Shown: positions 1 through 14,797, counted from the stretch's first letter. The stretch: 15,778 bases of DNA from a virus (IMGVR_UViG_2909298281_000001:1-15778), one strand, 5' to 3'. A program made the numbers and translations. The notes: generated by a model not told the origin, from the sequence alone.

Positions 1-1260
1 ATGAAGCTCAACGCCAGACAGGTCGAGACCGCAAAGCCAAAAGACAAAACCTACAAAATGGCCGATGGTGGTGGTTTGTATCTTGAGGTTTCGGCCAAAG
101 GTTCCAAATACTGGCGCATGAAATACAGACGTCCCTCTGACAAAAAAGAGGATCGTCTCGCGTTTGGTGTTTGGCCTACTGTGACGCTTGCTCAGGCAAG
201 AGCAAAGCGCGATGAAGCCAAAAAGCTGTTAGCGCAGGGCATTGATCCAAAAGCCGAACAGAAAGAGGCTCAGGCCGAGAACTCGGGGGCATATACTTTC
301 GAAACCATTGCTCGTGAATGGCATGCTAGTAACAAGCGATGGAGTGAAGACCATCGATTGCGCGTTCTTCGCTATCTTGAACTTTATATCTTTCCATATA
401 TCGGTTCATCTGACATTCGCCAGCTCAAAACCAGCCACCTGTTAGCCCCTATTAAAAAGGTTGATGCCAGTGGCAAGCATGACGTTGCACAGCGTCTTCA
501 GCAGCGTGTCACGGCTATTATGCGTTATGCCGTGCAGAACGATTATATCGACTTTAATCCAGCCAGTGACATGGCCGGTGCGTTATCGACAACCAAAGCG
601 CGACATTACCCCGCCTTACCCTCCAGCAGGTTCCCTGAGTTTCTTGCTCGTCTTGCTGCATATCGTGGGCGTGTAATGACACGAATTGCGGTTGAGCTTT
701 CGTTACTTACTTTTGTGCGTTCCAGCGAGTTACGTTTCGCGCGTTGGGGTGAATTCGACTTCGATAAATCTCTTTGGCGCATACCTGCAAAACGAGAAGA
801 AATTAAAGGGGTGCGTTATTCGTACCGTGGCATGAAGATGAAAGAGGAGCATATCGTGCCGCTTAGTCGTCAGGCGATGAATTTATTAGACCAGCTAAAG
901 CAGATTAGTGGTGATAAGGAGCTGCTTTTTCCTGGTGATCATGACGCAACTAAGGTTATGAGTGAAAACACAGTAAACAGCGCATTACGTGCAATGGGAT
1001 ATGACACTAAGACTGAAGTGTGTGGACATGGATTTAGAACTATGGCTCGCGGTGCGTTAGGTGAGTCAGGGTTATGGAGCGACGACGCGATAGAACGGCA
1101 GTTAAGTCACTCAGAGCGCAACAATGTGCGTGCTGCATATATTCATACATCAGAACATTTAGAAGAACGACGCCTAATGATTCAATGGTGGGCTGATTAT
1201 CTTGATATGAATAAAACAACTTTCATCACGCCATTCGATTTTGCACGATTAAAAAAGTAA
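1..1260 (+). CDS. int: P4-family tyrosine integrase, 419 aa
   Basis: Full-length ORF. N-terminus MKLNARQVETAKPKDKTYK..GGGLYLEVS is typical of P4/IntS-like integrases. C-terminal catalytic-type motifs HGFRTMARG (HxxR) and RAAYIHTSEH (Tyr region). The window begins at the start codon, so attL and the target tRNA lie upstream, outside the window. Confidence 0.93.
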   Translation: MKLNARQVETAKPKDKTYKMADGGGLYLEVSAKGSKYWRMKYRRPSDKKEDRLAFGVWPTVTLAQARAKRDEAKKLLAQGIDPKAEQKEAQAENSGAYTFETIAREWHASNKRWSEDHRLRVLRYLELYIFPYIGSSDIRQLKTSHLLAPIKKVDASGKHDVAQRLQQRVTAIMRYAVQNDYIDFNPASDMAGALSTTKARHYPALPSSRFPEFLARLAAYRGRVMTRIAVELSLLTFVRSSELRFARWGEFDFDKSLWRIPAKREEIKGVRYSYRGMKMKEEHIVPLSRQAMNLLDQLKQISGDKELLFPGDHDATKVMSENTVNSALRAMGYDTKTEVCGHGFRTMARGALGESGLWSDDAIERQLSHSERNNVRAAYIHTSEHLEERRLMIQWWADYLDMNKTTFITPFDFARLKK

Positions 1261-1393
1261 AAACTTTTGCTGAAGTTTCTAGAAATAAAATTTGCTATAA
1301 ATCGACTATTTAAAACTTGGTGGTTGATTTCAATGTGTATTTGTGTTAATGATCTTTTAAATTGAAAAATATTCATCTCAAGTTGACGATTTT

Positions 1394-2296
1394 ATGGAAA
1401 TATCGAAAAATAAAATTTGGGAAGCCAAAGAATGGGAATCTCATGTAAATGATTTACTCCGACTAAAATTTGGTGAAGTAAATTATATATCTATACCTGA
1501 TTTTCATAATGGGGACGCTGGAATTGAGGGATATTGTGTACAGGGATATGCTTTTCAGTCTTATTGTCCTAATGAGGCATGTACAGTTGATAAGTTGTAT
1601 GAAAAACAAAGAGACAAGATGACCGCGGATGTTGCAAAATTCATTTCAGATAAAAAGGGGTATTTAAAAGAAATTCTACAAAACACCAGAATAAAAAGAT
1701 GGATTTTGGTAGTGCCATCTCACTTATCTAAAAAATTGAATGTTCATGCAACAAAAAAAGAAAGTGAAGTTCTAGCTGCTAAATTACCTTATGTTGATAA
1801 TGATGATTTCAAGGTGCTTATTTGGGATCGAGAAAATTTCAAAAAAGAGGAAGATGAATTAATTAGCAGCGGGCTTAGATTATTGAGGATAGAACTTCCT
1901 GAAGTCGATATTAACGATATTGATAATCTAAAAGATAACAATAGCGAGTTTGGCGATAATATTTCAAGGAAGCTTAGAAAGATAAAAAATGATGAGCGTC
2001 AAGTACAGACAGCTTCAACTGTATTATTAAAAAATATAGTTATGTATAAAAACATCATGAGTGGCCTCAAAGATAACTATCCTAGTTTATATGAAAATAT
2101 AACAAATGGTATACTGGATCGTGAGCAAGATTTGTCCTTGGCTTTTTTTGATTCTGAAAATTTGACTCTGACTCAGCAAATTCAACACCTTAATGATAAG
2201 CTAAAACAGTCTAGCCGTCTTCATCAAGATAATCTAAAATGTATTTCTACCGGAGTGGTTGGTGATTGGCTAATGCGCTGTAATTTGGACTTTTAA
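1394..2296 (+). CDS. Hypothetical protein, 300 aa; first gene of hotspot cargo operon (candidate effector)
   Basis: ATG-initiated 300-aa ORF in a markedly A+T-rich segment. Stop TAA at 2294-2296 lies 2 nt before the next ATG (2299), consistent with an operon. No catalytic motif I can assign with confidence; the stretch IPDFHNGDAGIEGYCVQ could be a degenerate nuclease-like acidic motif but this is speculative. Confidence 0.6.
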   Translation: MEISKNKIWEAKEWESHVNDLLRLKFGEVNYISIPDFHNGDAGIEGYCVQGYAFQSYCPNEACTVDKLYEKQRDKMTADVAKFISDKKGYLKEILQNTRIKRWILVVPSHLSKKLNVHATKKESEVLAAKLPYVDNDDFKVLIWDRENFKKEEDELISSGLRLLRIELPEVDINDIDNLKDNNSEFGDNISRKLRKIKNDERQVQTASTVLLKNIVMYKNIMSGLKDNYPSLYENITNGILDREQDLSLAFFDSENLTLTQQIQHLNDKLKQSSRLHQDNLKCISTGVVGDWLMRCNLDF

Positions 2297-2298
2297 TC

Positions 2299-2763
2299 AT
2301 GGATATTCTAAAAGAAACGCCTGAAAAGATGACTTTTAACTCGACTGGTTCGCCTGTTGAACCCGAATTAAGACCCATCTGGAGAATATCCTTGCTTGCT
2401 ATCATTCTTAAAAAACTATGCAGAGGCTCTTCTGCGAGTTTAAAAAAAATGCAAGTTTTATATTCTTTGATTTCCTCCGCCGATAAAAGAAGTCGGTATT
2501 TCACTGAAGGAGGTAATGCGGATATAAGCATTCGGTTTGATCCTCTCTTAGATAGAGCTATTTCGTTGGGAGTGGCAGAAGGTATATTTACTTTGGATGC
2601 TGCAAAAAGCGTTGTGTTAACCAATAAGGGCACGCTCTTATCTAATAAAATTTACAAAGATTCAACATTATTCGTTTTTGAAAAGGAATTTATCGAGAAC
2701 TATAGTAAATCTGAATTTTCCGATAAAAAGATAGATCAAATATTATACAGGGGAATTATATGA
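2299..2763 (+). CDS. Hypothetical protein, 154 aa; middle gene of hotspot cargo operon
   Basis: ORF tightly packed between flanking genes; its stop TGA (2761-2763) overlaps the ATG of the next gene (2760-2762) as ATGA. AGGGGA Shine-Dalgarno-like sequence at 2748-2753 serves the downstream gene. No recognizable motif. Confidence 0.55.
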   Translation: MDILKETPEKMTFNSTGSPVEPELRPIWRISLLAIILKKLCRGSSASLKKMQVLYSLISSADKRSRYFTEGGNADISIRFDPLLDRAISLGVAEGIFTLDAAKSVVLTNKGTLLSNKIYKDSTLFVFEKEFIENYSKSEFSDKKIDQILYRGII

Positions 2764-3987
2764 GCAAACTTAAGATTGAGAGATTAATTATACGAACAAA
2801 TACTAGTGATGGAATATATGGGACAGACCTTAAATTTGGCTATGGTCTAAATATTATAAGTGCTGAGAACTCTTCTGGTAAATCCACCTGTATACAATCA
2901 ATTATTTATGCACTAGGATTGGAGGGAATATTGGGACCATCCAGAAAAAATCCCTTAAAGTCTGCTCTAACTACTAAATTACGTGATAATAATGATACTG
3001 AAATACCGGTTAATGAATCAAAAATTTATCTCCAACTTTCTAACGAACATTCAAGAAAAATAACTATTTTAAGAAAAAGTGATAGTGATATTTCAAAAAT
3101 CGTTACCGTATATGACTGTGAGTTCGATAAAATCAATCCTCACAAATTTACGGACTATTTTTTGAAAGATCCCGGTTCTGCTCAGCGTGAGAAAGGATTT
3201 CATTATTTTCTTTCGAATTTCTTAGGGATAACACAGCCCGAAGTGATTAAATATGATGGAACCAAGTGTCCACTTTATCTTGAGTCAATATTCACAGTTA
3301 ATTATGTAGAGCAAACAAGAGGTTGGGGTGGGATTCTAAATGTTATTCCTACTTACTTGGGTATTAAGGATTTATCACAAAACGTTCTTGAATATACTCT
3401 TAATTTAGATGTTCGAGAAATAAGAAAGAAACGCGAGATATTTTTAGATGAAAAGAAAAATCTTGAAACTAAATGGGCAAATACAATCTCAGAGTTAGAG
3501 TCTAATGCAAAGGCTTATGGCTTCTTTGTATCAACAAGAATACCTGATAAAATCACTACAAAATCAGATACCTATCAAGATAGTGATTTATATACATTGG
3601 ATGAAAATAATCGTGAGATTTCTTTACCACTATACAAGGCTCATAAAGAGAACGAATTAGAATATATTAGAGCACAATTAAAAAATAACGACATCCCTAA
3701 TGATGGGGTGTTAGATTCTGTTCTTGATAGTCTTCGAGTGAATTTAGCTAATCAAGAATATGCTCTTTCATTATTAATCTCTGACATAGAGTCTAATAAA
3801 CTGTATATAAGTTCAATTAATAAGAGTCTGACTGATACAAAAGAAAGTCTTAGAAAATATAGAGATATTGAAAAGCTTAAGTTATTGGGCTCGCAGGAGG
3901 ATTTTTCTTTTGTCACTGGTAGTTGCCCAACTTGTGGACAAGCCGTTGAAGATACTCTCTTACCAGCGAGCTTTGATGGAAAGACAT

Positions 3988-3996
3988 TAACGGTTG
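3988..3996. repeat. IS1 target-site duplication, left copy (TAACGGTTG)
   Basis: 9-bp TAACGGTTG immediately abuts the IS1 end and is repeated exactly at 4765-4773. Confidence 0.88.
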
Positions 3997-4011
3997 GGTA
4001 ATGACTCCAAC

Positions 4012-4515
4012 TTATTGATAGTGTTTTATGTTCAGATAATGCCCGATGACTTTGTCATGCAGCTCCACCGATTTTGAGAACGACAGCGACTTCCGTCCCA
4101 GCCGTGCCAGGTGCTGCCTCAGATTCAGGTTATGCCGCTCAATTCGCTGCGTATATCGCTTGCTGATTACGTGCAGCTTTCCCTTCAGGCGGGATTCATA
4201 CAGCGGCCAGCCATCCGTCATCCATATCACCACGTCAAAGGGTGACAGCAGGCTCATAAGACGCACCAGCGTCGCCATAGTGCGTTCACCGAATACGTGC
4301 GCAACAACCGTCTTCCGGAGCCTGTCATACGCGTAAAACAGCCAGCGCTGGCGCGATTTAGCCCCGACGTATCCCCACTGTTCGTCCATTTCTGCGCAGA
4401 CGATGACGTCACTGCCCGGCTGTATGCGCGAGGTTACCGACTGCGGCCTGAGTTTTTTAAGTGACGTAAAATCGTGTTGAGGCCAACGCCCATAATGCGG
4501 GCAGTTGCCCGGCAT
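4012..4515 (-). CDS. insB: IS1 transposase InsB reading frame, 167 aa (expressed as InsAB' fusion by -1 frameshift)
   Basis: Translation [25 protein letters not shown]...NIKHYQ matches IS1 InsB as I recall it; position and length are canonical within IS1. Confidence 0.9.
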
Positions 4516-4709
4516 CCAACGCCATTCATGGCCATATCAATGATTTTCTGGTGCGTACCGGGTTGAGAAGCGGTGTAAGTGAACTGCAGTTGCCATGTTT
4601 TACGGCAGTGAGAGCAGAGATAGCGCTGATGTCCGGCGGTGCTTTTGCCGTTACGCACCACCCCGTCAGTAGCTGAACAGGAGGGACAGCTGATAGAAAC
4701 AGAAGCCAC
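4434..4709 (-). CDS. insA: IS1 InsA transposition repressor, 91 aa
   Basis: Translation [43 protein letters not shown]... with zinc-finger CxxC..CxxC and HTH region; canonical IS1 InsA length. Confidence 0.93.
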
Positions 4710-4764
4710 TGGAGCACCTCAAAAACACCATCATACACTAAATCAGTAAGTTGGCAGCATCACC

Positions 4765-4773
4765 TAACGGTTG
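4765..4773. repeat. IS1 target-site duplication, right copy (TAACGGTTG)
   Basis: Exact repeat of 3988-3996 immediately after the IS1 terminal repeat. Confidence 0.88.
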
Positions 4774-5582
4774 AAGATAATATAAAGTATCTAGAAAAAA
4801 CCTATGCAGTATTTGATAGCTTGGCAAAAAGTGAAAAAATAAAATTTGAAAGAAAAGAAGCTGCATTAAAAGTAGCTAATGCTAAAGTTCGAGACTTGCG
4901 TAATCAGATCAAAGAAGTTCAGCGTAGCATATCATCTCCTATAAACTCCGAGCTTAGAGAACTCATAAGAAAGGAAGTTAAACTGGAAAAGGATATCGAC
5001 ATTTTAAACTCACTGGAGGAATTCGAAATTAGTAAAAAAGATACACTTATGGCTGTTCTTTCTGATTGGTATGATTGTAATAATCAACTAACAGTACTTC
5101 CGTATGATGGTTTTAGCAAAGCAGATATATTAAAGTTGAGGTTATTACGTGATTCATTTAAATCAAACTTGGAGGATTTTGGTTATAAAAGTACACCAAT
5201 TGAAGAGTTTGATTTATCGAGAAATACATACAAACCAACTGTCGATGGTATAGATATCGGCTCTGAAGCATCCGCCAGTGATAACATTAGGGTGATTTGG
5301 TCATATTTGTATTCATTGTTGATGTTAGATTCCAGTGCAAGAGATATCTCAACTAATCATTTGGGACTGTTGATTATGGATGAACCAAGACAGCAAGAAA
5401 CTAAAGATGCTAGTTTTAGAACACTAATTAAGAAAGCATCTGAGTCGTATATTCAAGAAAAACAGATTATTATGGGTACTAGTGAAAAATTTACTGATTT
5501 AATTGCCATGCTGGATGGTTTGCATGTGAATCTTTTGCATTTCGATAGTAATATTATCCGTAAACAGTAAATCCCTCAATGT

Positions 5583-5618
5583 CCTGTTGCATCGCTAAAT
5601 ACTTAGCGATGCAACAGG
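5583..5618. terminator. Perfect 16-bp hairpin downstream of the cargo operon (candidate intrinsic terminator)
   Basis: CCTGTTGCATCGCTAA (5583-5598), loop ATAC, TTAGCGATGCAACAGG (5603-5618), 13 nt after the stop at 5570, followed by A+T-rich sequence. The T-run is not immediately adjacent, so efficiency is uncertain. Confidence 0.5.
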
Positions 5619-5811
5619 GGTATATAATTATTTATTTGTGTTGAATATAACTTCATCCTAATTTTTTTGTTTATGAAAAAGTCACTAAGAATAATTCATT
5701 TGGTTCTATTCGTTTTTCATTAAAATATTTAATCGAGATATTCAAAGATTTATATTCTATTTTGTCAATTGAACTGGCTGTAAAAGAGAAATCATTTAAA
5801 GTTGGCGCGCA

Positions 5812-5830
5812 GTGCTTTCCCCGCCTCGCC
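5812..5830 (-). other. cos site (19-nt cohesive end of the P2/P4 family)
   Basis: GTGCTTTCCCCGCCTCGCC on the plus strand is the reverse complement of GGCGAGGCGGGGAAAGCAC, which I recall as the P2/P4 cohesive-end sequence. It sits between the cargo region and psu, where cos lies in integrated P4. Confidence 0.75.
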
Positions 5831-5933
5831 CGCCCGCTTTGCGGGGCGGTTTTAATGCAGTTGCACTGACACGCTCAGGCCGCGCCGGGAATGGCGCGGT
5901 CTGCAGAAAATGAGGCAAGAAAACGCATGCAAA

Positions 5934-5964
5934 GCCATGCACCTTATCGATGCATGGCTTTTTT
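5934..5964. terminator. Hairpin plus T-run downstream of psu (candidate terminator, possibly bidirectional)
   Basis: GCCATGCA (5934-5941), 9-nt loop, TGCATGGC (5951-5958), then TTTTTT (5959-5964) on the plus strand. On the minus strand the same hairpin lies about 30 nt past the psu stop but with a weaker U-tract. Confidence 0.4.
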
Positions 5965-5994
5965 CAGTAAAAACGGGCAGATTTTCGGGGAGTT

Positions 5995-6567
5995 TTACAC
6001 AGACTGATGTGATGCCAGTTGCGCACTTTTACGCGAAAAAATCATGTTCTGCGCAGGGGTGAATTTTTCACGGCTGTCATCCACCGAAGCCGCGTCAGGC
6101 CTGAATCCGATGGTCGTTAAAATGTCGCTATCCTGTGCGGAATAATTAATTTTTTCACCCTTCGCAAGCCAGGACAGGAGGGCTTCACGCAGGGCATCTG
6201 TGGCACGCTGTATGGCACAGTTTCGGGCAATGACCGTCAGTTCACTGTAGCCCATCAGCTCCGGTGCCAGTGCGGCCGCCAGTACTGTGCCGTGCTGCTG
6301 CATAAAATCATTCAGCCGGTCGCGGATGCTGATGTGCTGAACGGCTTCATGCGAACGAATATAACGACCGGCGGCCTGATTCACCTGCCATTTTCTGACT
6401 TCGATAATATTGCGTAATTCGTCCAGGCGACTGACGTTTCTGCCTTCTCCTGACAGAAGCCGCAGGTATTCCTGTTCGGCCGCTGCCAGCTCATTTTTGC
6501 GTTGCAGCCATGCTGCTTTGTTATTCTGATAGGTGTCAAAGGCCTGCTGTAAGGCTGTGCTTTCCAT
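5995..6567 (-). CDS. psu: Psu polarity-suppression protein (capsid decoration / Rho antagonist), 190 aa
   Basis: 190-aa ORF beginning MESTALQQAFDTYQNNKAAWLQRKNELAAAEQEY... Length and sequence character match P4 Psu as I recall it, and it is the last gene of a sid-delta-psu order. Confidence 0.9.
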   Translation of the reverse strand: MESTALQQAFDTYQNNKAAWLQRKNELAAAEQEYLRLLSGEGRNVSRLDELRNIIEVRKWQVNQAAGRYIRSHEAVQHISIRDRLNDFMQQHGTVLAAALAPELMGYSELTVIARNCAIQRATDALREALLSWLAKGEKINYSAQDSDILTTIGFRPDAASVDDSREKFTPAQNMIFSRKSAQLASHQSV

Positions 6568-6640
6568 CGTTATCTCTTTCTCATCATGCTGAAGAATAAA
6601 AATACGGTGTGCGGCGACGGCCGGTGTTAACCGGCAGCCC

Positions 6641-7141
6641 TCATTCCAGACGCAGCGAATATGATTGTGTTTTTAACCGTACTGGCGGCAGTTCCTGTTT
6701 TTCATGCAGGCGTTCTGCCAGTTCGTCCGGTGTGACCGGGCGGACAATGAAGCGGTTGATGGTCTGAAGCGTTTTAAACACCAGACCACAGCCCGGATCC
6801 GTGCACACATAAAAACGCTCGGTGACTTCCTGAGAGAGACGCCGCGATGTTCTTGACAGTGCAAGGCCTTTACATCTCCGACAACAATATCCGGTAACAA
6901 GCATTCTTTTCGGGCGTTTCATACTGCCGGAGGCTGACGTCAGTGAATCGCGGTATCTCTGTTTGCCTGAAATGTATTCCATTCCTGAATCTTTACTGTC
7001 AGAGAAAAAGCTTTCACTCGCTTCAAATGTCGCAGAGCAATAAATATTCCGGCACTGTGCAATCATTATCTTGGTGCCATCGTCCATGAAATGTGCGCGG
7101 CGGGTGTGAGCAACATGTCCACACGACGGGCAGTAAATCAT
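6641..7141 (-). CDS. delta: Delta late-gene transcriptional activator (tandem Ogr-like zinc-finger protein), 166 aa
   Basis: Two Ogr-type cysteine clusters (CPSCGH...CRNIYC and CRRC...CTDPGC) in a 166-aa protein, the P4 Delta length as I recall. ATGA overlap with the sid stop (7138-7141). Confidence 0.9.
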   Translation of the reverse strand: MIYCPSCGHVAHTRRAHFMDDGTKIMIAQCRNIYCSATFEASESFFSDSKDSGMEYISGKQRYRDSLTSASGSMKRPKRMLVTGYCCRRCKGLALSRTSRRLSQEVTERFYVCTDPGCGLVFKTLQTINRFIVRPVTPDELAERLHEKQELPPVRLKTQSYSLRLE

Positions 7142-7872
7142 GACAGCAGTCCTCTGGCCTTAAGCTCTGCTCCCTGCTGGTCTATTTTGTCCTGCCACAC
7201 CTTGCGCTGTGCCGGTGTGCCCGCCACCTCATAATCCATGTGCGGAAGTGTTGCCGCTGACAGTCCGGTCAGCCGGAGAACCGGCTCGCCGGTGAGGCTG
7301 ATTTGCATCTGTTTTATTTTCTGTTCCAGCGATGATTTCACCTGCTGCATGACAGCTTTATCGGGTGCGACGTAGCCCTGATGCCCGGTGGTGTTGGCGA
7401 GCGGATTTTCCTGTACCAGAATGCTCAGATGCATTGCCCGGACAAGCGCCTCACAGGTTTCATTCAGGGCGTGTTCCAGCTCATGCTCTGCATACAGACT
7501 CAGCAGGTGATGATGTGCCTTCCGGTAGGCGGTGGCCGTGCTGTCACACGCCCCTTTCAGGCGTTCACGTTCGAAATTCAGCACCACGGCCAGATTGTCA
7601 TATTCCTGTACCAGCTCCCGGCGTGCCACGCGCTCAATGTGGCGCTGTTTCAGCTCGTCGCTCAGGACACCACCGGCTGCACGAAAGGCCGTGCGCCAGT
7701 CGTCAGCGTCGTTTCCGTCGGCCTGCGCCAGCGCATTTTTTTCCTGCTCTGCCCGTTCAATGGCCGCGACGGTCTCATCCATCAGGCGGGCGTTCTCAAG
7801 ATGGGCGGCTCTGGCCTTTTCCAGTTGTGCCAGTGCGGGTTGCAGATATTCAGGGATAGTGTGGTCAGACAT
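7138..7872 (-). CDS. sid: Sid external scaffold (capsid size determination) protein, 244 aa from the ATG at 7872
   Basis: The track ORF (7138..7890) starts at a GTG. The in-frame ATG at 7870-7872 is preceded on the minus strand by GAGGAG about 8 nt upstream and gives 244 aa, the P4 Sid length as I recall. Coiled-coil-like, alanine-rich sequence. Confidence 0.85.
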   Translation of the reverse strand: MSDHTIPEYLQPALAQLEKARAAHLENARLMDETVAAIERAEQEKNALAQADGNDADDWRTAFRAAGGVLSDELKQRHIERVARRELVQEYDNLAVVLNFERERLKGACDSTATAYRKAHHHLLSLYAEHELEHALNETCEALVRAMHLSILVQENPLANTTGHQGYVAPDKAVMQQVKSSLEQKIKQMQISLTGEPVLRLTGLSAATLPHMDYEVAGTPAQRKVWQDKIDQQGAELKARGLLS

Positions 7873-7897
7873 TTTCCGGCTCCTCGTCACTTCAGGT

Positions 7898-7962
7898 TAA
7901 GAAAATTGTGACGTACACCGGACAACAACACGACGCATTGCAGATGTGCCAGCCCTGACACA
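7898..7962 (-). promoter_or_regulatory. Candidate Psid late promoter with two TGT-N12-ACA Delta/Ogr-type dyads
   Basis: Dyads TGTGCCAGCCCTGACACA (7945-7962) and TGTGACGTACACCGGACA (7907-7924), centres about 38 bp apart. With a predicted leftward start near 7898 (a CACAAT -10-like hexamer on the minus strand at 7910-7905), they sit at about -55 and -17. I recall P4 late promoters carrying an extra activator site near -18. Confidence 0.5.
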
Positions 7963-8041
7963 GGAGACTCATCCTCAGACCGGCAAGCCAGGAAAAGGTC
8001 GCAGGAAAAACCGGCTTACTGTTTGTTTTTTTATATTTTAC

Positions 8042-8145
8042 TGTTCACCTCTGTTCACCATAAGAAAAAAGATAAGTAATACAGTAAGTTAAAGGGTGAA
8101 CAATCGCAGTAATGACTGTTCACCGTCTGTTCACCACTGTTCACC
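8042..8145. repeat. Iteron cluster (TGTTCACC octamers), candidate P4-type ori
   Basis: Five direct copies of TGTTCACC (8042-8049, 8052-8059, 8118-8125, 8128-8135, 8138-8145) and one inverted copy GGTGAACA (8095-8102). The same octamer recurs in the crr repeats downstream of alpha, about 4.8 kb away, consistent with the P4 ori/crr arrangement as I recall it. Confidence 0.6.
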
Positions 8146-8302
8146 CGTTAATGGGCTTTTTGTGCTGTTCATTACTTTTTATTTTTATTAATTCACTGAA
8201 ATAAATAAGAAAAAACAATTTGTATTTCACTATAATTTTTTCCAGCTCCTTCCAGAGCGTTTTAAAGCTATCTGCGCTGATGTACAAAAAATACACAGCC
8301 AT

Positions 8303-8365
8303 TGTAAGACTGCCGGAACAAATCCCCCCTGTTGCGTCTGCCGAAAATATTCACAAAATAAAGCG
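8303..8365 (+). promoter_or_regulatory. Candidate PLL late promoter upstream of vis
   Basis: TGT-N12-ACA dyad TGTAAGACTGCCGGAACA (8303-8320) followed about 45 bp later by a CACAAA -10-like hexamer (8352-8357) resembling the Psid CACAAT. A second, imperfect dyad lies near 8339-8355. Start site predicted around 8365. Confidence 0.4.
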
Positions 8366-8422
8366 CTACCCGAAGCCGGACGGACTTATCCGGTGCTGTA
8401 TGGACATTAACGAGGTAGCCCG

Positions 8423-8689
8423 ATGCAAGCTGTTTTTTCTTCCCCGTCTCCCGCCCCTGTGACGCCACTGATGCCGCTGCCGGACATCACGCAGGAGCGT
8501 TTTTTACGTCTGCCGGAAGTGATGCACCTGTGCGGCCTGTCACGCTCGACCATCTATGAACTCATCCGTAAGGGGGAATTTCCGCCGCAGGTGAGTCTTG
8601 GCGGTAAAAATGTGGCCTGGCTGCACTCTGAAGTCACCGCATGGATGGCCGGGCGCATTGCCGGACGCAAACGGGGGTACGACGCATGA
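8423..8689 (+). CDS. vis: Vis-like / AlpA-family helix-turn-helix regulator, 88 aa
   Basis: GAGG 7 nt upstream of the ATG. Sequence ...[28 protein letters not shown].. is AlpA/Vis-type HTH in character. 88 aa matches the P4 orf88 (vis) length as I recall. Confidence 0.75.
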
Positions 8690-8724
8690 TGATGCCTGTT
8701 CTGCAAAAAGTCCCTTTTTCTGGC

Positions 8725-8754
8725 TTGCCTTTTTCCGGCATTTGCGGATATAGT
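8725..8754 (+). promoter_or_regulatory. Candidate PLE early/immunity promoter (sigma-70 type)
   Basis: -35 TTGCCT (8725-8730), 18-bp spacer, -10 TATAGT (8749-8754). Lies just upstream of the seqA-like element at about 8784-8810. Confidence 0.4.
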
Positions 8755-8929
8755 TTTTCCGCTGTCGCAAAATCGGCAGCCGGGCGTAGGAACCCGTGTA
8801 ACTCGAAGGCGACATATGACGCGCCATGCGTCTTTTTTTGTGTCGCAATCAACGCCACAGAGCGCCAGATTATGGTGTGGCGTGTGGTTTGCCGTGCAGG
8901 TATGATCCTGTTCGCAATCGCATGTTATG

Positions 8930-9008
8930 CCACTGAGTCAATGGTAGCTCAGGCGGGGCAGCCTCCGGGCTGGCCGGTATTCTTCGAGGCCGGTATTCCT
9001 ACCCCCGT
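8930..9008 (+). ncRNA. Candidate CI immunity RNA (P4-type RNA repressor) containing a seqB-like element; boundaries approximate
   Basis: A segment TTCTTCGAGGCCGGTATTCCTACCC (about 8980-9004) is complementary to two flanking elements that share GCGTAGGAAC...CTCGAAGG (about 8784-8810 and 9028-9068), matching the seqA/seqB/seqC logic of P4 immunity as I recall it. Ends cannot be set from sequence alone. Confidence 0.35.
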
Positions 9009-9078
9009 CTGGGCTATCGCCATCGAGCGTAGGAACTCCGGCGATAGCAGTTATTTGCTACTCGAAGGAGACGGCCTT

Positions 9079-9276
9079 ATGGCTACAACCCTTACCCCCT
9101 CACACCCTGAATTTGTCTTTGTGTTTGCGGCTGTCCGTCGCGCAGACCGTCATCCCCGTATCTGTATGCTTCGCACCGTCGCCGGTGATGAACGCAGTGC
9201 CCGCCGTTCCCTTGTCCGTGACTATGTGCTCTCCCTTGCTGCCCGTCTGCCGGTGGTGGAGGTGTCCCGTGCGTAA
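9079..9276 (+). CDS. Small protein, 65 aa, kil-like by position (first translated gene after the immunity RNA)
   Basis: ATG at 9079 preceded by AAGGAG (9065-9070), which lies inside the downstream seqC-like element. Stop overlaps the next gene's GTG start (GTGCGTAA, 9269-9276). Confidence 0.45.
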
Positions 9277-9556
9277 TAAAAAAGCCCCTCAGACCGTCTC
9301 AGCGCGTCATGACGCCCGTGAACACCTCAGCATTGAGGCTTACCATAAGCTCAACCGCGCCAGCGCCGTATCCCAGTTTGTTGGGGGTGATTTGATTCAC
9401 CGTGAACTCTCCGGCCTGCATCAGCTCTACATTCCGCATATTTTCAGCTACCTGAATGAAGATATTGATTTTGTGCTGAATGAGCTGAAAGCCAAAGGCC
9501 TGTGCCGCGATTTTCTCGCCCAGCAGAAAGACCGGGGAGACAGGACGCATGTTTGA
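9269..9556 (+). CDS. Epsilon-like small protein, about 95 aa from the GTG start (assignment by position)
   Basis: GTG at 9269 is preceded by GGAGG (9258-9262) and is in frame with the track ORF 9113..9556. Its stop overlaps the orf151 start. Sits immediately upstream of orf151 as the epsilon gene does in P4, as I recall. Confidence 0.5.
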
Positions 9557-10004
9557 TTTTCCCCAGCCCGGTGAGATTTACCGTTCTGCCGGTTTTCCCG
9601 ATGTGGCCGTGGTCGGCATTCTGGAAGACGGTATTCCGTGGGAAATGCCGTACCGCTGCCCGGACATTGTCTGGAACCCGTACCGCCGTAAATTCAGTAT
9701 CCTTGTGCGTATCCTCGCTGACGGGCGCACCACAGACATCCCGCTGGGGCGTTTTCTGCGGGAATTTACCTGTGACCGTCCTGACCTGTTTAAACGCAGC
9801 CCCGTAAACCGGCATGCGGTACTGAAAGAAATGGCCGGAGACCCGGAATTACAGAAATGGCGGGAGAAATATCTGGATATTTACCCGCAGGACCCTGTTC
9901 CGGTCAGCCGGGCGGCACCGGTGGCGCGGGAATGGCGGGAAATTCCCCGCACGGAGCCTGACCCGGAAATCACCCCGGATAACAGTTACCGCAATTATCT
10001 GTAA
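9549..10004 (+). CDS. P4 orf151-like protein, 151 aa
   Basis: Exact 151-aa length, position between the epsilon-like gene and alpha, and start overlapping the upstream stop (ATGTTTGA). Confidence 0.8.
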   Translation: MFDFPQPGEIYRSAGFPDVAVVGILEDGIPWEMPYRCPDIVWNPYRRKFSILVRILADGRTTDIPLGRFLREFTCDRPDLFKRSPVNRHAVLKEMAGDPELQKWREKYLDIYPQDPVPVSRAAPVAREWREIPRTEPDPEITPDNSYRNYL

Positions 10005-10139
10005 TTAAAAAACGACACCCGAAAAATTAAATGTGCGTATTCGCGCAGGGATACGCACGTCTTCAGGAGACGCAGATATGCCTTATCAGTTAATGCAACC
10101 GGCACGGAATGCAGTCATCTGTCACAGGGAGGAAAGCAA

Positions 10140-10460
10140 ATGAAAACACCCTTACCGCCCGTCTTACGCGCTGCCCTTTACCGTCGTGCTGTCGCCTGTG
10201 CCTGGCTGACCGTGTGCGAACGTCAGCACCGCTACCCGCATCTCACCCTTGAGTCACTGGAGGCGGCCATCGCCGCTGAGCTGGAAGGCTTTTATCTGCG
10301 CCAGCACGGTGAGGAAAAAGGGCGTCAGATAGCCTGTGCCCTGCTGGAAGATTTAATGGAATCCGGCCCCCTGAAGGCCGCGCCGTCGCTGTCCTTTCTC
10401 GGGCTGGTTGTGATGGATGAACTCTGTGCCCGTCACATAAAAGCGCCGGTACTGCACTGA
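10140..10460 (+). CDS. P4 orf106-like protein, 106 aa
   Basis: 106-aa ORF immediately upstream of alpha with matching codon usage. The name is from recollected P4 ORF nomenclature. Confidence 0.7.
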
Positions 10461-10474
10461 AGGAGAACTACACC

Positions 10475-12808
10475 ATGAAAATGAACGTAACCGCCACCGT
10501 CAGTCATGCGCTCGGCCACTGGCCGCGTATTCTCCCGGCGCTGGGGATTCAGGTGCTGAAAAACCGTCATCAGCCCTGTCCGGTCTGTGGCGGGAGTGAC
10601 CGCTTCCGTTTTGATGACAGGGAGGGGCGCGGCACCTGGTACTGCAATCAGTGTGGTGCCGGTGACGGCCTGAAACTGGTTGAAAAGGTGTTTGGTGTTT
10701 CCCCGTCCGACGCGGCCGCAAAGGTGGCTGCCGTGACCGGCAGCCTGCCCCCGGCTGACCCGGCAGTGACGGCCGCCGCCGTTGCTGAAACAGAAGCCGC
10801 CCGGAAGAACGCCGCCGCACTGGCACAAACCCTGATGGCGAAAACCCGTCCCGGAACCGGTAACGCCTACCTGACCCGCAAGGGCTTTCCCGGCCGGGAA
10901 TGCCGGATGCTGACCGGCACACACAGAGCCGGTGGCGTGAGCTGGCGCGCCGGTGACCTTGTGGTGCCACTGTATGACGACAGCGGCGAACTGGTTAACC
11001 TTCAGTTAATCAGTGCTGACGGCCGTAAGCGCACCCTGAAAGGCGGACAGGTCAGGGGCACCTGTCACATCCTTGAAGGACAGAATCAGGCCGGAAAACG
11101 TCTGTGGATAGCGGAGGGATACGCGACCGCACTTACCGTGCATCACCTGACCGGTGAAACGGTGATGGTGGCGCTTTCTTCCGTGAACCTCCTTTCTCTG
11201 GCCAGACTTGCCCGGCAGAAGCATCCGGCCTGTCAGATTGTCCTTGCCGCAGACCGTGACCTCAGCGGTGACGGCCAGAAAAAAGCCGCCGCAGCCGCAG
11301 ATGCGTGTGAAGGTGTTGTTGCCCTGCCGCCGGTCTTCGGTGACTGGAATGATGCCTTCACGCAGTACGGCGGGGAGGCCACCCGTAAGGCCATTTACGA
11401 TGCCATCCGGCCACCGGCTGAAAGCCCGTTCGACACCATGAGCGAAGCGGAGTTTTCCGCCATGAGTACCAGCGAAAAGGCCATGCGTATCTATGAGCAT
11501 TACGGCGAGGCGCTCGCGGTCGATGCCAACGGCCAGCTTCTGTCCCGTTATGAAAATGGTGTCTGGAAGGTGCTGCCGCCACAGGACTTTGCCCGGGATG
11601 TGGCCGGGCTGTTTCAGCGGCTGCGCGCGCCGTTCTCCTCCGGGAAGGTGGCCTCCGTGGTGGACACCCTGAAGCTGATTATTCCGCAGCAGGAAGCCCC
11701 CTCCCGCCGCCTGATTGGCTTTCGTAACGGTGTGCTCGACACACAGAACGGCACGTTCCACCCGCACAGTCCGTCACACTGGATGCGCACCCTGTGTGAT
11801 GTGGATTTCACCCCACCGGTGGAAGGGGAAACGCTGGAAACCCACGCCCCCGCGTTCTGGCGCTGGCTTGACCGTGCCGCCGGTGGCCGTGCGGAAAAAC
11901 GCGACGTGATTCTGGCCGCACTGTTTATGGTGCTGGCAAACCGCTACGACTGGCAGCTCTTTCTGGAGGTGACCGGTCCCGGCGGCAGCGGCAAAAGTAT
12001 CATGGCCGAAATAGCCACCCTGCTGGCCGGGGAGGATAACGCCACATCGGCCACCATTGAGACGCTGGAATCCCCGCGTGAACGTGCCGCGTTAACTGGC
12101 TTCTCACTGATACGCCTGCCTGACCAGGAAAAATGGAGCGGCGACGGTGCCGGACTCAAGGCCATCACCGGCGGCGATGCGGTGTCCGTTGACCCGAAAT
12201 ACCGGGATGCGTACTCCACGCACATCCCGGCGGTGATTCTGGCCGTGAACAATAACCCGATGCGCTTCACCGACCGCAGCGGCGGCGTGTCACGCCGGCG
12301 GGTGATTATTCACTTCCCTGAACAGATAGCCCCGCAGGAGCGCGACCCGCAGCTTAAGGACAAAATCACCCGCGAGCTGGCGGTCATCGTGCGTCACCTG
12401 ATGCAGAAATTCAGCGACCCGATGCTCGCCCGGTCACTGCTTCAGTCCCAGCAGAACTCAGACGAGGCGCTGAACATCAAACGGGATGCCGACCCGACGT
12501 TTGATTTTATCGGCTATCTGGAAACCCTGCCGCAGACCAGCGGCATGTATATGGGGAACGCCAGTATCATCCCGCGCAATTACCGTAAATACCTCTATCA
12601 CGCCTATCTGGCCTACATGGAGGCAAACGGCTACCGGAACGTACTCAGTCTGAAAATGTTCGGGCTGGGGCTGCCGGTGATGCTGAAGGAATACGGACTG
12701 AATTACGAGAAGCGCCATACCAAACAGGGGATACAGACCAACCTGACACTGAAAGAGGAAAGCTACGGCGACTGGCTGCCAAAATGTGACGACCCTGCAA
12801 CAGCCTGA
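10475..12808 (+). CDS. alpha: Alpha primase-helicase replication protein, 777 aa
   Basis: AAGGAGA ribosome-binding site (10460-10466). N-terminal zinc-binding CPVCGGSDRF...YCNQCGAGDG followed by a primase-type acidic region (..LAADRDLSGDGQ..). Central Walker A GPGGSGKS and D5-type SF3 helicase region. 777 aa is the P4 alpha length as I recall. Confidence 0.95.
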   Translation: MKMNVTATVSHALGHWPRILPALGIQVLKNRHQPCPVCGGSDRFRFDDREGRGTWYCNQCGAGDGLKLVEKVFGVSPSDAAAKVAAVTGSLPPADPAVTAAAVAETEAARKNAAALAQTLMAKTRPGTGNAYLTRKGFPGRECRMLTGTHRAGGVSWRAGDLVVPLYDDSGELVNLQLISADGRKRTLKGGQVRGTCHILEGQNQAGKRLWIAEGYATALTVHHLTGETVMVALSSVNLLSLARLARQKHPACQIVLAADRDLSGDGQKKAAAAADACEGVVALPPVFGDWNDAFTQYGGEATRKAIYDAIRPPAESPFDTMSEAEFSAMSTSEKAMRIYEHYGEALAVDANGQLLSRYENGVWKVLPPQDFARDVAGLFQRLRAPFSSGKVASVVDTLKLIIPQQEAPSRRLIGFRNGVLDTQNGTFHPHSPSHWMRTLCDVDFTPPVEGETLETHAPAFWRWLDRAAGGRAEKRDVILAALFMVLANRYDWQLFLEVTGPGGSGKSIMAEIATLLAGEDNATSATIETLESPRERAALTGFSLIRLPDQEKWSGDGAGLKAITGGDAVSVDPKYRDAYSTHIPAVILAVNNNPMRFTDRSGGVSRRRVIIHFPEQIAPQERDPQLKDKITRELAVIVRHLMQKFSDPMLARSLLQSQQNSDEALNIKRDADPTFDFIGYLETLPQTSGMYMGNASIIPRNYRKYLYHAYLAYMEANGYRNVLSLKMFGLGLPVMLKEYGLNYEKRHTKQGIQTNLTLKEESYGDWLPKCDDPATA

Positions 12809-12815
12809 CCCACCT

Positions 12816-12841
12816 GACCGGCATCTGCCGGTCTTTTTTTT
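12816..12841 (+). terminator. Rho-independent terminator after alpha
   Basis: GACCGGCA-TC-TGCCGGTC perfect 8-bp stem (12816-12833) followed directly by a run of eight T (12834-12841), 8 nt after the alpha stop. Confidence 0.75.
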
Positions 12842-12856
12842 ATCCCGATATCCCCC

Positions 12857-13160
12857 GAAGGTGAACAATCCACTGTTCACCCTTCACCGTATGTTCACCC
12901 GTTATCACACTGAAATTAAAAGAGAAAAACGAAAGGTGAACAGTGTGAACAATCAAATCAAAAAAAACTTTTTTCTTCCTGAGTGATTTCAGTACGGGGG
13001 ATTAATCACCGGTATGAGTCACACCGGCAGAATGCCGGAGGTGAAGAATCGAATGTTCACCCTTCACCCATTATTCACCATCTATTACTCTGAAATAAAA
13101 GGAGAAAATCAAAGGGTGAACAGTGTGAACAGTTCTTCCGAAAAAAAATTTTTTATGTGG
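12857..13160. repeat. crr (cis replication region): two direct repeats of about 120 bp, each with several TGTTCACC/GGTGAACA iterons
   Basis: Unit 1 about 12857-12980 and unit 2 about 13037-13160 align closely (e.g. ..GTTCACCCTTCACC..CTGAAAT.AAAAG.AGAAAA.C.AAAGGTGAACAGTGTGAACA..AAAAAAA.TTTTTT). The about 60-bp spacing matches my recollection of P4 crr. Confidence 0.7.
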
Positions 13161-13344
13161 GTAAAAGATGCACTGGTTTGGATCCGAGCTACGGATCCAA
13201 ACTCACTGATTAAAAATTAGTTAACTTTCCGATTTGTTGATGGGTTGAAAATAGATTGGTCAGAAAAACAGTGGGGGCACAAAAGGGGGCATATTTCATT
13301 TTTGTTTTTTATTATTTGTTTTTTATCATTGACTTATTTTGATA

Positions 13345-13366
13345 TTTGAGTCCGGCCTTCGCACCT
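13345..13366 (+). other. Candidate attR core: degenerate copy of a tRNA 3' end (right boundary of the element)
   Basis: TTTGAGTCCGGCCTTCGCACC resembles a tRNA T-arm/acceptor 3' end (TTCGAGTCCGGCCTTCGGCACCA type), with one substitution and one deletion relative to my recollection of a leucine tRNA end. Located after crr where attR is expected. Confidence 0.45.
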
Positions 13367-13575
13367 TCGCACCATCGGAACATCAATAGACATCAACGGA
13401 CGTTTTTTTATGACTGAAATCCGCGCCACACAAGGCTTTTCGCTATTTTTCGCTCAACCTAAGTCAACCTACATCAACTTACTGATGTGGATACAGCTAC
13501 AGCTGCGGCTATACCCCGATTCGATAATGTTTGTACCCACACAAAACCCTTGAAAGGCTACAAGGCTGAAATTGT

Positions 13576-13794
13576 CTAAACCATAGAGATGATTTTTATG
13601 ATCCAGTCTTTCTCTTGTTGAGATAGTTCCAGTTTGCTCACTCGTGTTAAGAAGGTATTGATCACCTGAACATCCGAATTGGTGAGCCTATTTAATAGAG
13701 CGGGTGGTATACCTTTACTAACAATCGCTTTGCGGTGACTTTCGTAGTTTTTATTACTCATTGTTGATCCTAAAAAATCATTGTATGGCGGCAT
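13576..13794 (-). CDS. Hypothetical small ORF, 72 aa (possibly the downstream fragment of a frameshifted gene)
   Basis: ORF from track only; lies 23 nt downstream of the 80-aa ORF on the same strand in a different frame. Confidence 0.3.
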   Translation of the reverse strand: MPPYNDFLGSTMSNKNYESHRKAIVSKGIPPALLNRLTNSDVQVINTFLTRVSKLELSQQEKDWIIKIISMV

Positions 13795-13817
13795 TGATCG
13801 TTTCCAGCAACCTTTAC

Positions 13818-14060
13818 TTACTCACTTCGAACTGCATCCTCGTAGACTGTTCCACTACAATAATCGAAAAGGCGCGGATGTCCATTCAGGTATCCCGCTA
13901 ATACGTATAGCAATAACAATGGCTTATGCGGCGCGCGCTGTTCACCCTTGTGCCAGATTTTTATATTGGCAATTGCCTGCTGTAGCGATTTACTGGAAGC
14001 TATTGATATCCCTGGCAGTGAAATAATTGCGATCATGCTCGCAAATTTTCTGCTGTTCAA
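13818..14060 (-). CDS. Hypothetical small ORF, 80 aa
   Basis: ORF from track. Weak local resemblance (I-x-I-W-x-x-G-E ... P) to the N-terminal region of the divergent HNH-domain protein at 14140..14790. Confidence 0.3.
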   Translation of the reverse strand: MNSRKFASMIAIISLPGISIASSKSLQQAIANIKIWHKGEQRAPHKPLLLLYVLAGYLNGHPRLFDYCSGTVYEDAVRSE

Positions 14061-14139
14061 GCCTGCAAGTGAAGATATATTACCTTGATCTCATTTGTTT
14101 TTTTGCTGCCTGTTCTGAGAACGTATAAGGACATTCTCC

Positions 14140-14790
14140 ATGAATAAACTCCCTGATCATCTTCCGCGGCGGTATATCATCGAAGCTATCCATTTATGGG
14201 ATGCGGGAGAAACTCATCAGTTCCAGCCTGCGCGGTTGTATGAGATTGAATATCATGGCCGACGTTACCCCTCGAAGGCGATTGCTGGCATCGCAGCGAC
14301 ATTGATGACGGGGACGCAATTTACCCCTGCGGATTTCACCGGCGGAATAAAATCTAAATGTGTCAAGCTACTCATAGAGCAGGGATTTCATATTCATCTG
14401 GATAAAGCCGCTGCGGCTCCCATAGCCGACGTTCTGTTCCCGGATGAGTTGCCGTCGCAGGAGACATACCTTGAAGGTGCGGCGATAAAGGTGACAGTAA
14501 ACCGCTATGAACGCGATAAAAAGGCCCGAGATAAAGCGGTCGAACATCATGGATGCCAGTGCAACGTATGCGGTGTTGATCTGGTGAAGATCTATGGTGA
14601 TATCGCTGAAGGCTTTATCCATGTGCATCACCTGGTGCCGCTGTCAGCCATTAAAGAGGATTACCAGCTGGATCCAGTTAATGATTTGCTGCCTGTGTAC
14701 CCTAATTGCCATGCGATGTTGCACCGACGCAAACCACCGTTTACGCCGGAGCAGTTAAAAGCGCTGATGGATGCGAATAAATCAAATTAA
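14140..14790 (+). CDS. HNH endonuclease-domain protein, 216 aa, with an uncharacterized N-terminal domain
   Basis: C-terminal HNH-type motif CQCNVCGV...HVHHLVPLS...N...YPNCHAMLH (two Cys pairs plus His-His and Asn). The N-terminal 130 aa has no motif I can assign. Confidence 0.75.
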   Translation: MNKLPDHLPRRYIIEAIHLWDAGETHQFQPARLYEIEYHGRRYPSKAIAGIAATLMTGTQFTPADFTGGIKSKCVKLLIEQGFHIHLDKAAAAPIADVLFPDELPSQETYLEGAAIKVTVNRYERDKKARDKAVEHHGCQCNVCGVDLVKIYGDIAEGFIHVHHLVPLSAIKEDYQLDPVNDLLPVYPNCHAMLHRRKPPFTPEQLKALMDANKSN

Positions 14791-14797
14791 TGAACGC

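Follow-up and report, generated by a model that had tools for sequence, protein, structure and literature searches.

A nearly complete P4-like satellite prophage whose Lamassu cargo is interrupted by IS1

The systems described to date that come closest to the locus analyzed here are satellite P4 itself (NC_001609 / X51522), the P4-like satellites with a defense hotspot (Rousset et al. 2022, PMC9122126; de Sousa et al., PMC8628076, PMC13586616) and, for the cargo, the short-type Lamassu defense systems LmuACB / DdmABC (Haudiquet et al. 2025, PMC12663957). The P4-like family has been defined by seven components, namely int, psu, delta, sid, alpA, epsilon and alpha (PMC8628076). P4 hotspots have an average length of 2.6 kb, and the small capsid ‘can only accommodate ~12 kb’ (PMC9122126, citing Shore 1978). 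Modular exchange and decay have been described for the P4 hotspots, and transposable elements are infrequent in phages and satellites (PMC13586616). Here we analyzed IMGVR_UViG_2909298281_000001:1-15778, a stretch of 15,778 nucleotides (nt) that we refer to as the window. The element found in it is of a known kind, an ordinary, structurally intact relative of P4 in an Escherichia coli chromosome. In our reading, to which we assign a probability of roughly 0.85, the window holds a P4-like satellite prophage at the 3' end of the tRNA-Leu(CAA) gene leuX that is complete except for its attL end 182 nt upstream, the Lamassu operon in its variable slot between int and cos has been interrupted by a very recent IS1 insertion and is most likely null, and transfer by a helper is plausible, if perhaps inefficient.

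Alignment with P4 and gene complement

We aligned the window with the P4 reference NC_001609 using BLAST and observed three collinear blocks, all of them on the P4 minus strand and in prophage order. Window positions 1-1211 correspond to P4 3914-2704, which is the integrase gene int (89.6% nucleotide identity), positions 5801-5830 correspond to P4 30-1, and positions 5831-13365 correspond to P4 11624-4079, extending from cos to the attP core (97.3% nucleotide identity over 7548 columns). At 5830/5831 the two P4 ends are joined into a closed cos site, which fits the expectation for an integrated copy. Positions 1212-5800 have no P4 counterpart and are AT-rich, with ~33% G+C compared to 50-65% in the P4 core; the exception is a block of 54% at 4001-4500, which is IS1. 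All seven components of the P4-like family were found in the order int-cargo-psu-delta-sid-alpA-epsilon-alpha within 12.8 kb, and they lie less than 10 genes apart and in the common order, as used for co-localization in this family (PMC8628076).

The original prediction had described a P4-like satellite that is structurally complete, with its hijacking and replication modules intact and all P4-type landmarks in the expected integrated order. The P4 alignment and the domain searches agree with this description, the hijacking module being made up of psu-delta-sid and epsilon and the replication module of alpha, ori and crr, and the landmarks were recovered in that order by the alignment, by tblastn, by exact matches to cos and the octamers and by Rfam. 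Searching with P4 proteins by tblastn, we also found the core genes to be full length and free of internal stops, as had been proposed (97-100% amino acid identity where compared), and the alignments of alpha, int and sid, for which frameshifts or deletions had been named as the critical check, contain no frameshifts. A further claim had been that the gop/beta/cII block is absent and that a cargo operon stands in its place. This holds as well: tblastn with the P4 proteins Gop, Beta and CII gave no match for any of the three in the window.

Protein domains were assigned with Pfam. In Int, which shares 95% of its amino acids with residues 5-414 of P4 Int (tblastn), we found the domains Arm-DNA-bind_3, Phage_int_M and Phage_integrase. 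In an alignment of four sequences the residues R240, H343-x-x-R346, H370 and Y380 are invariant and may be read, by analogy, as the catalytic set of tyrosine recombinases, and the last ~15 amino acids (aa) vary among the relatives. We considered a C-terminal truncation of Int compared to P4 (419 versus 439 aa) and rejected it. Four N-terminal residues are a matter of start codon choice, window position 1 being an internal Met that PGAP took as the int start codon, and the remainder is a variable tail past the last conserved block; moreover, relatives that are annotated as intact have 419-422 aa. The 3' end of int is the variable border of the cargo slot. The tblastn matches of the remaining full-length core genes cover 8423-8686 (vis), 9269-9553 (epsilon), 9549-10001 (orf151), 10140-10457 (orf106) and 10475-12805 (alpha). 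Among the other core proteins, Delta is a two-domain Ogr/Delta zinc finger protein in which Pfam Ogr_Delta matches two stretches, and Alpha contains Zn_Ribbon_Prim, Toprim_3, D5_N, DUF5906 and Pox_D5. The gene kil was recognized in the long open reading frame (ORF) 8641-9276 by NCBIfam phage_ICD_like (E 3e-20, residues 158-205), and Pfam Phage_ASH matches this ORF too. P4p05, a GeneMark-predicted P4 ORF of 111 aa that overlaps crr, has a stop after 68 codons here (window 13014-13346), and its region is annotated as ‘integrase’ in one relative; it is probably not a real gene. The coordinates of all features are collected in Table 1.

Table 1. Features of the element in window coordinates; identities are to the P4 proteins (tblastn)
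Feature	Coordinates	Strand	Size	Description and matches
int	1-1260	+	419 aa	P4-type tyrosine integrase; window begins at its ATG
lmuA	1394-2296	+	300 aa	Lamassu effector; PADLOC LmuA, E 1.7e-31
lmuC	2299-2763	+	154 aa	PADLOC LmuC PDLC03871, E 1e-26
lmuB 5' part	2760-3996	+		Codons 1-412, then one IS1-encoded codon and stop at 3999-4001
IS1	3997-4764	-	768 bp	Splits third cargo gene lmuB after codon 412
lmuB 3' part	4765-5570	+		Codons 410-677, counting the duplicated 9 bp; Walker B LLIMDE; separated from the lmuB start codon and promoter
cos	5812-5870			19-nt cohesive end GGCGAGGCGGGGAAAGCAC at 5812-5830 (minus strand) and adjoining 40 nt of P4 right end
psu	5995-6567	-	190 aa	Capsid decoration and polarity suppression; tblastn match 5998-6567, 97.4% aa, full length; Pfam Psu, E 5.6e-87
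delta	6641-7141	-	166 aa	Late-gene activator; tblastn match 6644-7141, 98.8% aa, full length
sid	7138-7872	-	244 aa	External scaffold setting small capsid size; tblastn match 7141-7872, 99.2% aa, full length
Divergent control region and ori	7873-8422			
vis / ORF88	8423-8689	+	88 aa	AlpA-type regulator/excisionase; 98.9% aa; Pfam Phage_AlpA, E 7.3e-21
RNA immunity locus	8725-9078	+		
kil	9079-9276	+	65 aa	Icd-like cell-division inhibitor; 3' part of long ORF 8641-9276
epsilon	9269-9556	+	95 aa	Helper-prophage derepression; 98.9% aa; Pfam Derepression, E 7.7e-51
orf151	9549-10004	+		98.7% aa, full length
orf106	10140-10460	+		100% aa; Pfam DUF5375, E 2.9e-63; presumably cnr, copy-number control
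alpha	10475-12808	+	777 aa	Primase-helicase and origin-binding protein; 99.0% aa, full length
t-alpha terminator	12816-12841			3' of alpha
crr	12855-13154			Two 120-bp direct repeats, 12855-12974 and 13035-13154, five alpha-binding octamers each
attR	13271-13374	+		Arm-type repeats 13271-13294 (exact compared to P4); core GAGTCCGGCCTTCG-CACC-TTCGCACC-A at 13348-13374

The Lamassu cargo and the IS1 insertion

We assigned the cargo genes with PADLOC profiles and found that the ‘cargo operon’ is a short-type Lamassu defense system, lmuA-lmuC-lmuB. LmuA consists of an N-terminal restriction-endonuclease-like domain (PD-(D/E)xK fold) and a helical LmuA C-terminal domain. Its effector domain is without a Pfam family, searches of Pfam and NCBIfam returned nothing specific for LmuA and LmuC, and a sequence search gave no sequence-level match of LmuA, LmuB or LmuC to solved Lamassu structures. 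The lmuB 5' part (2760-4001) matches positions 2-334 of the 610 positions of the LmuB profile PDLC03863 (E 5.9e-59), has weak matches to Pfam AAA_23/SMC_N, and encodes a Walker A-type P-loop, ENSSGKST (aa 35-42), together with a single CxxC zinc-hook motif. The 3' ORF at 4821-5570 covers positions 361-597 of the same profile. Deleting 3997-4773 restores an LmuB ORF of 677 aa, which matches PDLC03863 with an E-value of 3.9e-99 and differs in 3 residues from WP_097453322 of E. coli 2013C-4974. The hhhhDE Walker B motif and the single CxxC fit a short-type LmuB by the criteria of PMC12663957. In the same region a perfect 36-nt palindrome, CCTGTTGCATCGCTAAATACTTAGCGATGCAACAGG, is located at 5583-5618, 13 nt past the lmuB stop codon, and presumably serves to terminate the operon. 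A response of Lamassu to DNA palindromes has been reported, and we mention the position of this palindrome beside lmuB as a curiosity.

The inserted IS1 is apparently intact. It encodes InsA (91 aa, 4434-4709) and an InsB frame of 167 aa (4012-4515), has terminal inverted repeats and carries the A6C frameshift site at 4458, and it shares 99.0-99.6% identity with IS1 copies annotated in records of P1-type phages. The 9-bp target duplication, TAACGGTTG, is present as direct repeats on either side of IS1 (3988-3996 and 4765-4773), and the IS1 boundaries were set by aligning the window to the IS-free allele, where the aligned parts overlap by 9 bp. This IS-free allele occurs in GCA_001911845.1, where we observed 0 mismatches over 3996 + 8309 aligned nt. 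Over window 1-12296, a range that contains IS1, the record CP024252.1 (GCA_002741275.1) shows 100.000% identity. Only one contig on record encodes the truncated LmuB protein. None of 5,426 complete E. coli genomes contains the lmuB/IS1 junction, although copies of it in draft genomes could be missed as short-read assemblies break at IS1; this lmuB occurs in only 2 of the complete genomes, and no complete E. coli genome record covers at least 80% of the window. From the absence of mismatches to the IS-free allele and the presence of the junction on a single contig we conclude that the insertion is very recent and private to one genome.

The IS1 break lies just past the CxxC motif and leaves the P-loop and the Walker B (LLIMDE) halves of the ATPase head on different sides of it. 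With its gene split in this way the Lamassu system is most likely null, and the cargo that a helper would transfer most likely amounts to a dead defense system and a live IS1. Two points weigh against a null system. At 4821-5570 there is still an ORF that begins with TTG and encodes 249 C-terminal aa of LmuB, and ATPase heads of the Rad50 type can, in principle, form from two separate polypeptides. Lamassu would still work if the two LmuB halves, which both remain ORFs (413 aa, and 249 aa starting at TTG 4821) and meet right at the division between the two parts of the ATPase head, were each produced on their own, with an outward promoter of IS1 perhaps driving the 3' half, and reassembled into an active sensor. 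We consider this very improbable. For the lmuB 3' half we identified neither a promoter nor a ribosome-binding site, TTG 4821 sits 48 nt into the lmuB 3' part so that 16 codons are lost, and the split allele was found in one genome alone. Moreover, sensing needs dimerization and coiled-coil geometry (PMC12663957), and a split LmuB would disrupt both.

A null Lamassu leaves the question of whether its loss was selected. The insertion may have been an adaptive and not a neutral event, by which a Lamassu that was costly or hostile to plasmids was silenced by transposition, and not swapped out, in a pathogenic E. coli with several plasmids. Lamassu of V. cholerae (DdmABC) is triggered by plasmids and phages (PMC12663957), and the accession adjacent to CP024252.1, CP024253.1, is plasmid ‘unnamed4’ of E. 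coli O182:H21 D181 (Jordan), which suggests a multi-plasmid strain; this assignment to D181, however, follows from the accession order only. Furthermore, defense pseudogenes are rare in P4 hotspots, with <1% of P4 pseudogenes (PMC13586616), and the state observed here is therefore unusual. However, the knock-out of lmuB by IS1 is a single observation with no parallel events, and E. coli genomes are rich in IS1 (on median 10-11 places per genome match, most of which are IS1 copies), which makes a neutral hit the simpler explanation, so that we regard selection for the insertion as quite unlikely. If it were true, it would represent an ‘inactivate first’ turnover of a defense system caught in the act, which is rare in large P4-hotspot surveys, and the insertion would also strand the satellite above the packaging limit.

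Beyond this allele, we observed that ten loci share the int-Lamassu module at 99.85-100% identity, and the identity of the P4 core linked to it varies from 96.2% to 100%. A cargo that is 99.85% identical on a core that is ~96.3% identical implies that the cargo module has been exchanged between different satellite backbones. The relatives with this Lamassu cargo (99.85% identical) and a core of ~96.3% identity also differ in delta, which is an 81-aa single-domain form compared to the 166-aa two-domain form; the half-size delta is located at 8804-9049 in locus L003 and at 14411-14656 in loci L008 and L016. A further relative, locus L011 (GCA_021275145.1, 8608-14600), is a deletion derivative in which the sequence corresponding to window 5890-12604 is missing. 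Here int-lmuA-lmuC-lmuB and a cos stub are joined directly to the alpha 3' end, crr and attR, and this locus is a fixed defense islet left by a decayed satellite.

Cis-acting sites and RNA immunity

The cos site shows 0 mismatches to P4 1-19 and to P4 11585-11624, and on the cargo side the similarity to P4 ends after 30 nt. Window 7860-8059 matches P4 at 100% identity, and upstream of sid the first 200 nt do not differ from P4. In the control region the pattern TGT-N12-ACA occurs upstream of sid at 7907-7924, with a second site at 7945-7962, and upstream of vis at 8303-8320, with the half-sites kept relative to P4; following the P4 literature, we take the sites at 7907-7924 and 7945-7962 to belong to Psid and the site at 8303-8320 to belong to PLL. 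The six ori type-1 octamers (8042-8145) are all exact compared to P4 (6/6). In crr the two repeats are identical to one another at 94 of 120 positions, and the octamers, which span 12860-13131, are kept at 10 of 10 P4 positions, one of them being altered from GGTGAATA to GGTGAACA. When counting exact octamer copies we found that 12 of the 13 in the window fall within ori or crr, with ~0.24 per strand expected by chance. One exact octamer, TGTTCACC, is located outside the element in the host flank at 13939, which may be a coincidence.

The RNA immunity locus was analyzed with Rfam and with promoter and terminator scans. A PLE-like promoter was found at 8725-8754 and a terminator hairpin in the leader at 8818-8832. 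Rfam recognized isrK, the PLE leader, at 8761-8838 (69.4 bits, gathering score 50) and the C4 / P4 CI RNA at 8937-9024 (74.4 bits, gathering score 45), and c4-a1b1 reached 44.6 bits, slightly below its gathering score of 46.7. Within the core, the divergence from P4 is greatest at 8700-9100, and the substitutions there are matched between the CI RNA and both of its targets. In P4, CI RNA CCUGUGAA pairs with the target TTCACAGG and UUCUCAC pairs with GTGAGAA. In the window, the CI RNA motifs are UCUUCGAG at 8981, which pairs with CTCGAAGG, and UUCCUAC at 8996, which pairs with GTAGGAA, and each target is present once in seqA (GTAGGAA at 8786, CTCGAAGG at 8802) and once in seqC (9029 and 9061, the latter overlapping the kil ribosome-binding site). 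By this motif comparison no P4-type immunity motif is left in the window locus. Predicted energies gave more stable duplexes for cognate than for cross pairs in 4 of 4 comparisons, with a modest difference. The discrimination over whole-length duplexes is modest because the flanking sequence is shared, and the comparison of motifs is the clearer evidence. The coordinated change at three sites points to an immunity specificity different from that of P4, and we predict the element to be heteroimmune to P4; at the level of sequence, the matched three-site change indicates a working immunity system. The allele is at least 99% identical in ~145 E. coli records.

If the element behaves as known from P4 biology, the CI RNA processed from the PLE leader would pair with seqA and seqC in the prophage state and thereby end transcription of the left operon. 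In the presence of a P2-like helper, Epsilon would derepress the helper, Delta together with the helper Ogr would activate Psid and PLL, and Alpha would drive replication from ori and crr. Vis and Int would carry out the excision, Sid and Psu would make the capsid protein of the helper assemble into a small shell, and the terminase of the helper would be expected to cut at cos.

Integration site, size and relation to known systems

A tRNA scan gave no tRNA within the window; the gene is located upstream of position 1. In CP024252.1 the tRNA-Leu(CAA) gene leuX, detected by ARAGORN, ends 163 nt upstream of window position 1 (leuX at 8360-8444 of locus L012, in which window position 1 equals 8608). 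The upstream attL/tRNA partner that the original prediction expected was thus located in this identical record. The attL core GAGTCCGGCCTTCGGCACCA is a perfect 20 bp at window coordinates -182 to -163 and is followed by P4 arm-type repeats. At the other end the similarity to P4 ends at 13365, within attR. We compared the attR variants of the window (13348-13374), of locus L003 (15256-15273) and of loci L005, L006 and L007 (each from 319). The 8-bp unit TTCGCACC is present in 1, 2, 3 or 4 copies across strains and in 2 copies in the window, a variation that may stem from slippage or be linked to the recombinase. A core that is short of one G was observed in 6 of 6 leuX-resident elements examined, which have two different downstream flanks, and a perfect core in none of them. 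We therefore did not accept the attR defect as specific evidence for decay of this particular copy: the one-G-short core is common to all relatives examined and is a shared feature, not a private lesion.

Mobilization of the element by a P2-like helper is plausible; we infer its excision, replication and packaging from the near-identity to P4, and this indirectness is itself a point to be set against the reading. Three further observations weigh against it. First, from attL core to attR core the element measures 13,530 bp (12,753 bp without IS1), compared to 11,624 bp for P4, so that it reaches 116% of the P4 length and exceeds the ~12 kb quoted for the small capsid (PMC9122126); the large cargo together with IS1 makes the element oversized. 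Second, the P4 block with the three ori ‘type 2’ decamers (P4 9176-9205) has been swapped for unrelated sequence at ~8236-8285 with conserved flanks, and the identity to P4 drops to 74% in the bin 8201-8300. Third, compared to attP, attL and four other strains, the attR core combines 14 nt of identity with one missing G and an 8-bp tandem duplication, which could impair excision. As a separate observation on the origin, E. coli 2013C-4974 has kept the P4 version of the type-2 decamer block and lacks one type-1 octamer.

These points raise the possibility that the element is structurally intact but effectively immobilized, either because its length exceeds what the small capsid determined by Sid can hold or because the imperfect attR blocks excision, and that it persists as a fixed chromosomal island. 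Besides its length and the one-G-short, partly duplicated attR core, the gap between int and psu is in line with such a state, with 4.74 kb compared to the mean hotspot of 2.6 kb (PMC9122126), and the deletion derivative L011, which is already without psu through alpha and has kept int and Lamassu, demonstrates that the lineage does decay into fixed islands. On the other hand, the seven core genes and the cis sites are all intact and carry no signs of decay, although IS1 is too recent for lost selection to have left traces, so that this intactness says little either way on the IS1-bearing copy. In addition, the one-G-short attR in all six leuX elements with their two downstream flanks is more readily explained as a feature that is tolerated or transmitted than as a lesion. 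Moreover, the P4-like retronphage phiR73, with ~12.7 kb close in size to the IS-free form of 12,753 bp, is packaged with a P2 helper. Immobilization seems to us possible, but rather unlikely. We thus favor an element for which helper-mediated transfer is plausible, but may be inefficient.

The host flank to the right of attR (13375-15778) contains a short piece, at ~13.8-14.06 kb, of what was a ScoMcrA-like restriction gene of the phosphorothioate-sensing kind, annotated as ‘partial’ in a relative, an intact HNH ORF of 216 aa at 14140-14790, and nanS at 14798-15778 on the minus strand. This flank is a degraded defense islet beside the satellite.

P4-like satellites with defense cargo beside cos have been catalogued by the thousand, and the value of the present locus lies mainly in its correct annotation. 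It nevertheless offers a natural pair of alleles, one bearing IS1 and one free of it, which are identical at every aligned base and available in two public assemblies. The pair suits tests of the small P4 capsid limit (12.75 versus 13.53 kb) and tests of the activity of an uncharacterized Lamassu subtype with a PD-(D/E)xK-fold LmuA. As a rare recognizable defense pseudogene in a P4 hotspot, the locus also bears on the turnover of defense systems in satellites.

With the heteroimmune P4-like retronphage phiR73, which we compared by its description, the element shares CI RNA immunity and a shift of specificity via matched substitutions in RNA and targets; it differs in that phiR73 has a retron as cargo and selC as site compared to Lamassu and leuX here, and phiR73 is absent from the phage-collection matches to the element. 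The cargo resembles short-type Lamassu LmuACB / DdmABC in the gene order A-C-B with a small LmuC, in an SMC/Rad50-like LmuB with P-loop, hhhhDE Walker B and one CxxC hook, and in an LmuA with a conserved C-terminal domain and an N-terminal nuclease-fold effector (PMC12663957). In contrast to these systems, LmuB has 677 aa, which is between the short (~600 aa) and long (~800 aa) means, and lmuB is interrupted, so that not all Lamassu components are intact.

Compared to P4 (NC_001609 / X51522), the element has the same gene order, cis sites and leuX tRNA-Leu integration site, with the 19-nt cos end, the ori and crr octamers and the arm-type att repeats in common. It differs from P4 in that the gop-beta-cII slot is filled by lmuA-lmuC-lmuB plus IS1, in the C-terminal tail of Int, in the matched substitutions of the CI RNA loops, seqA and seqC, in the replaced type-2 ori decamers, and in being 1.9 kb longer. 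Like the P4-like satellites with a defense hotspot, it combines the seven components with variable cargo beside cos and reflects rapid module swapping, its cargo being common to relatives with a 96%-identical core (PMC9122126, PMC8628076, PMC13586616). Unlike those satellites, it has a hotspot of 4.7 kb compared to 2.6 kb, and its defense gene is a recognizable pseudogene made by a transposable element.

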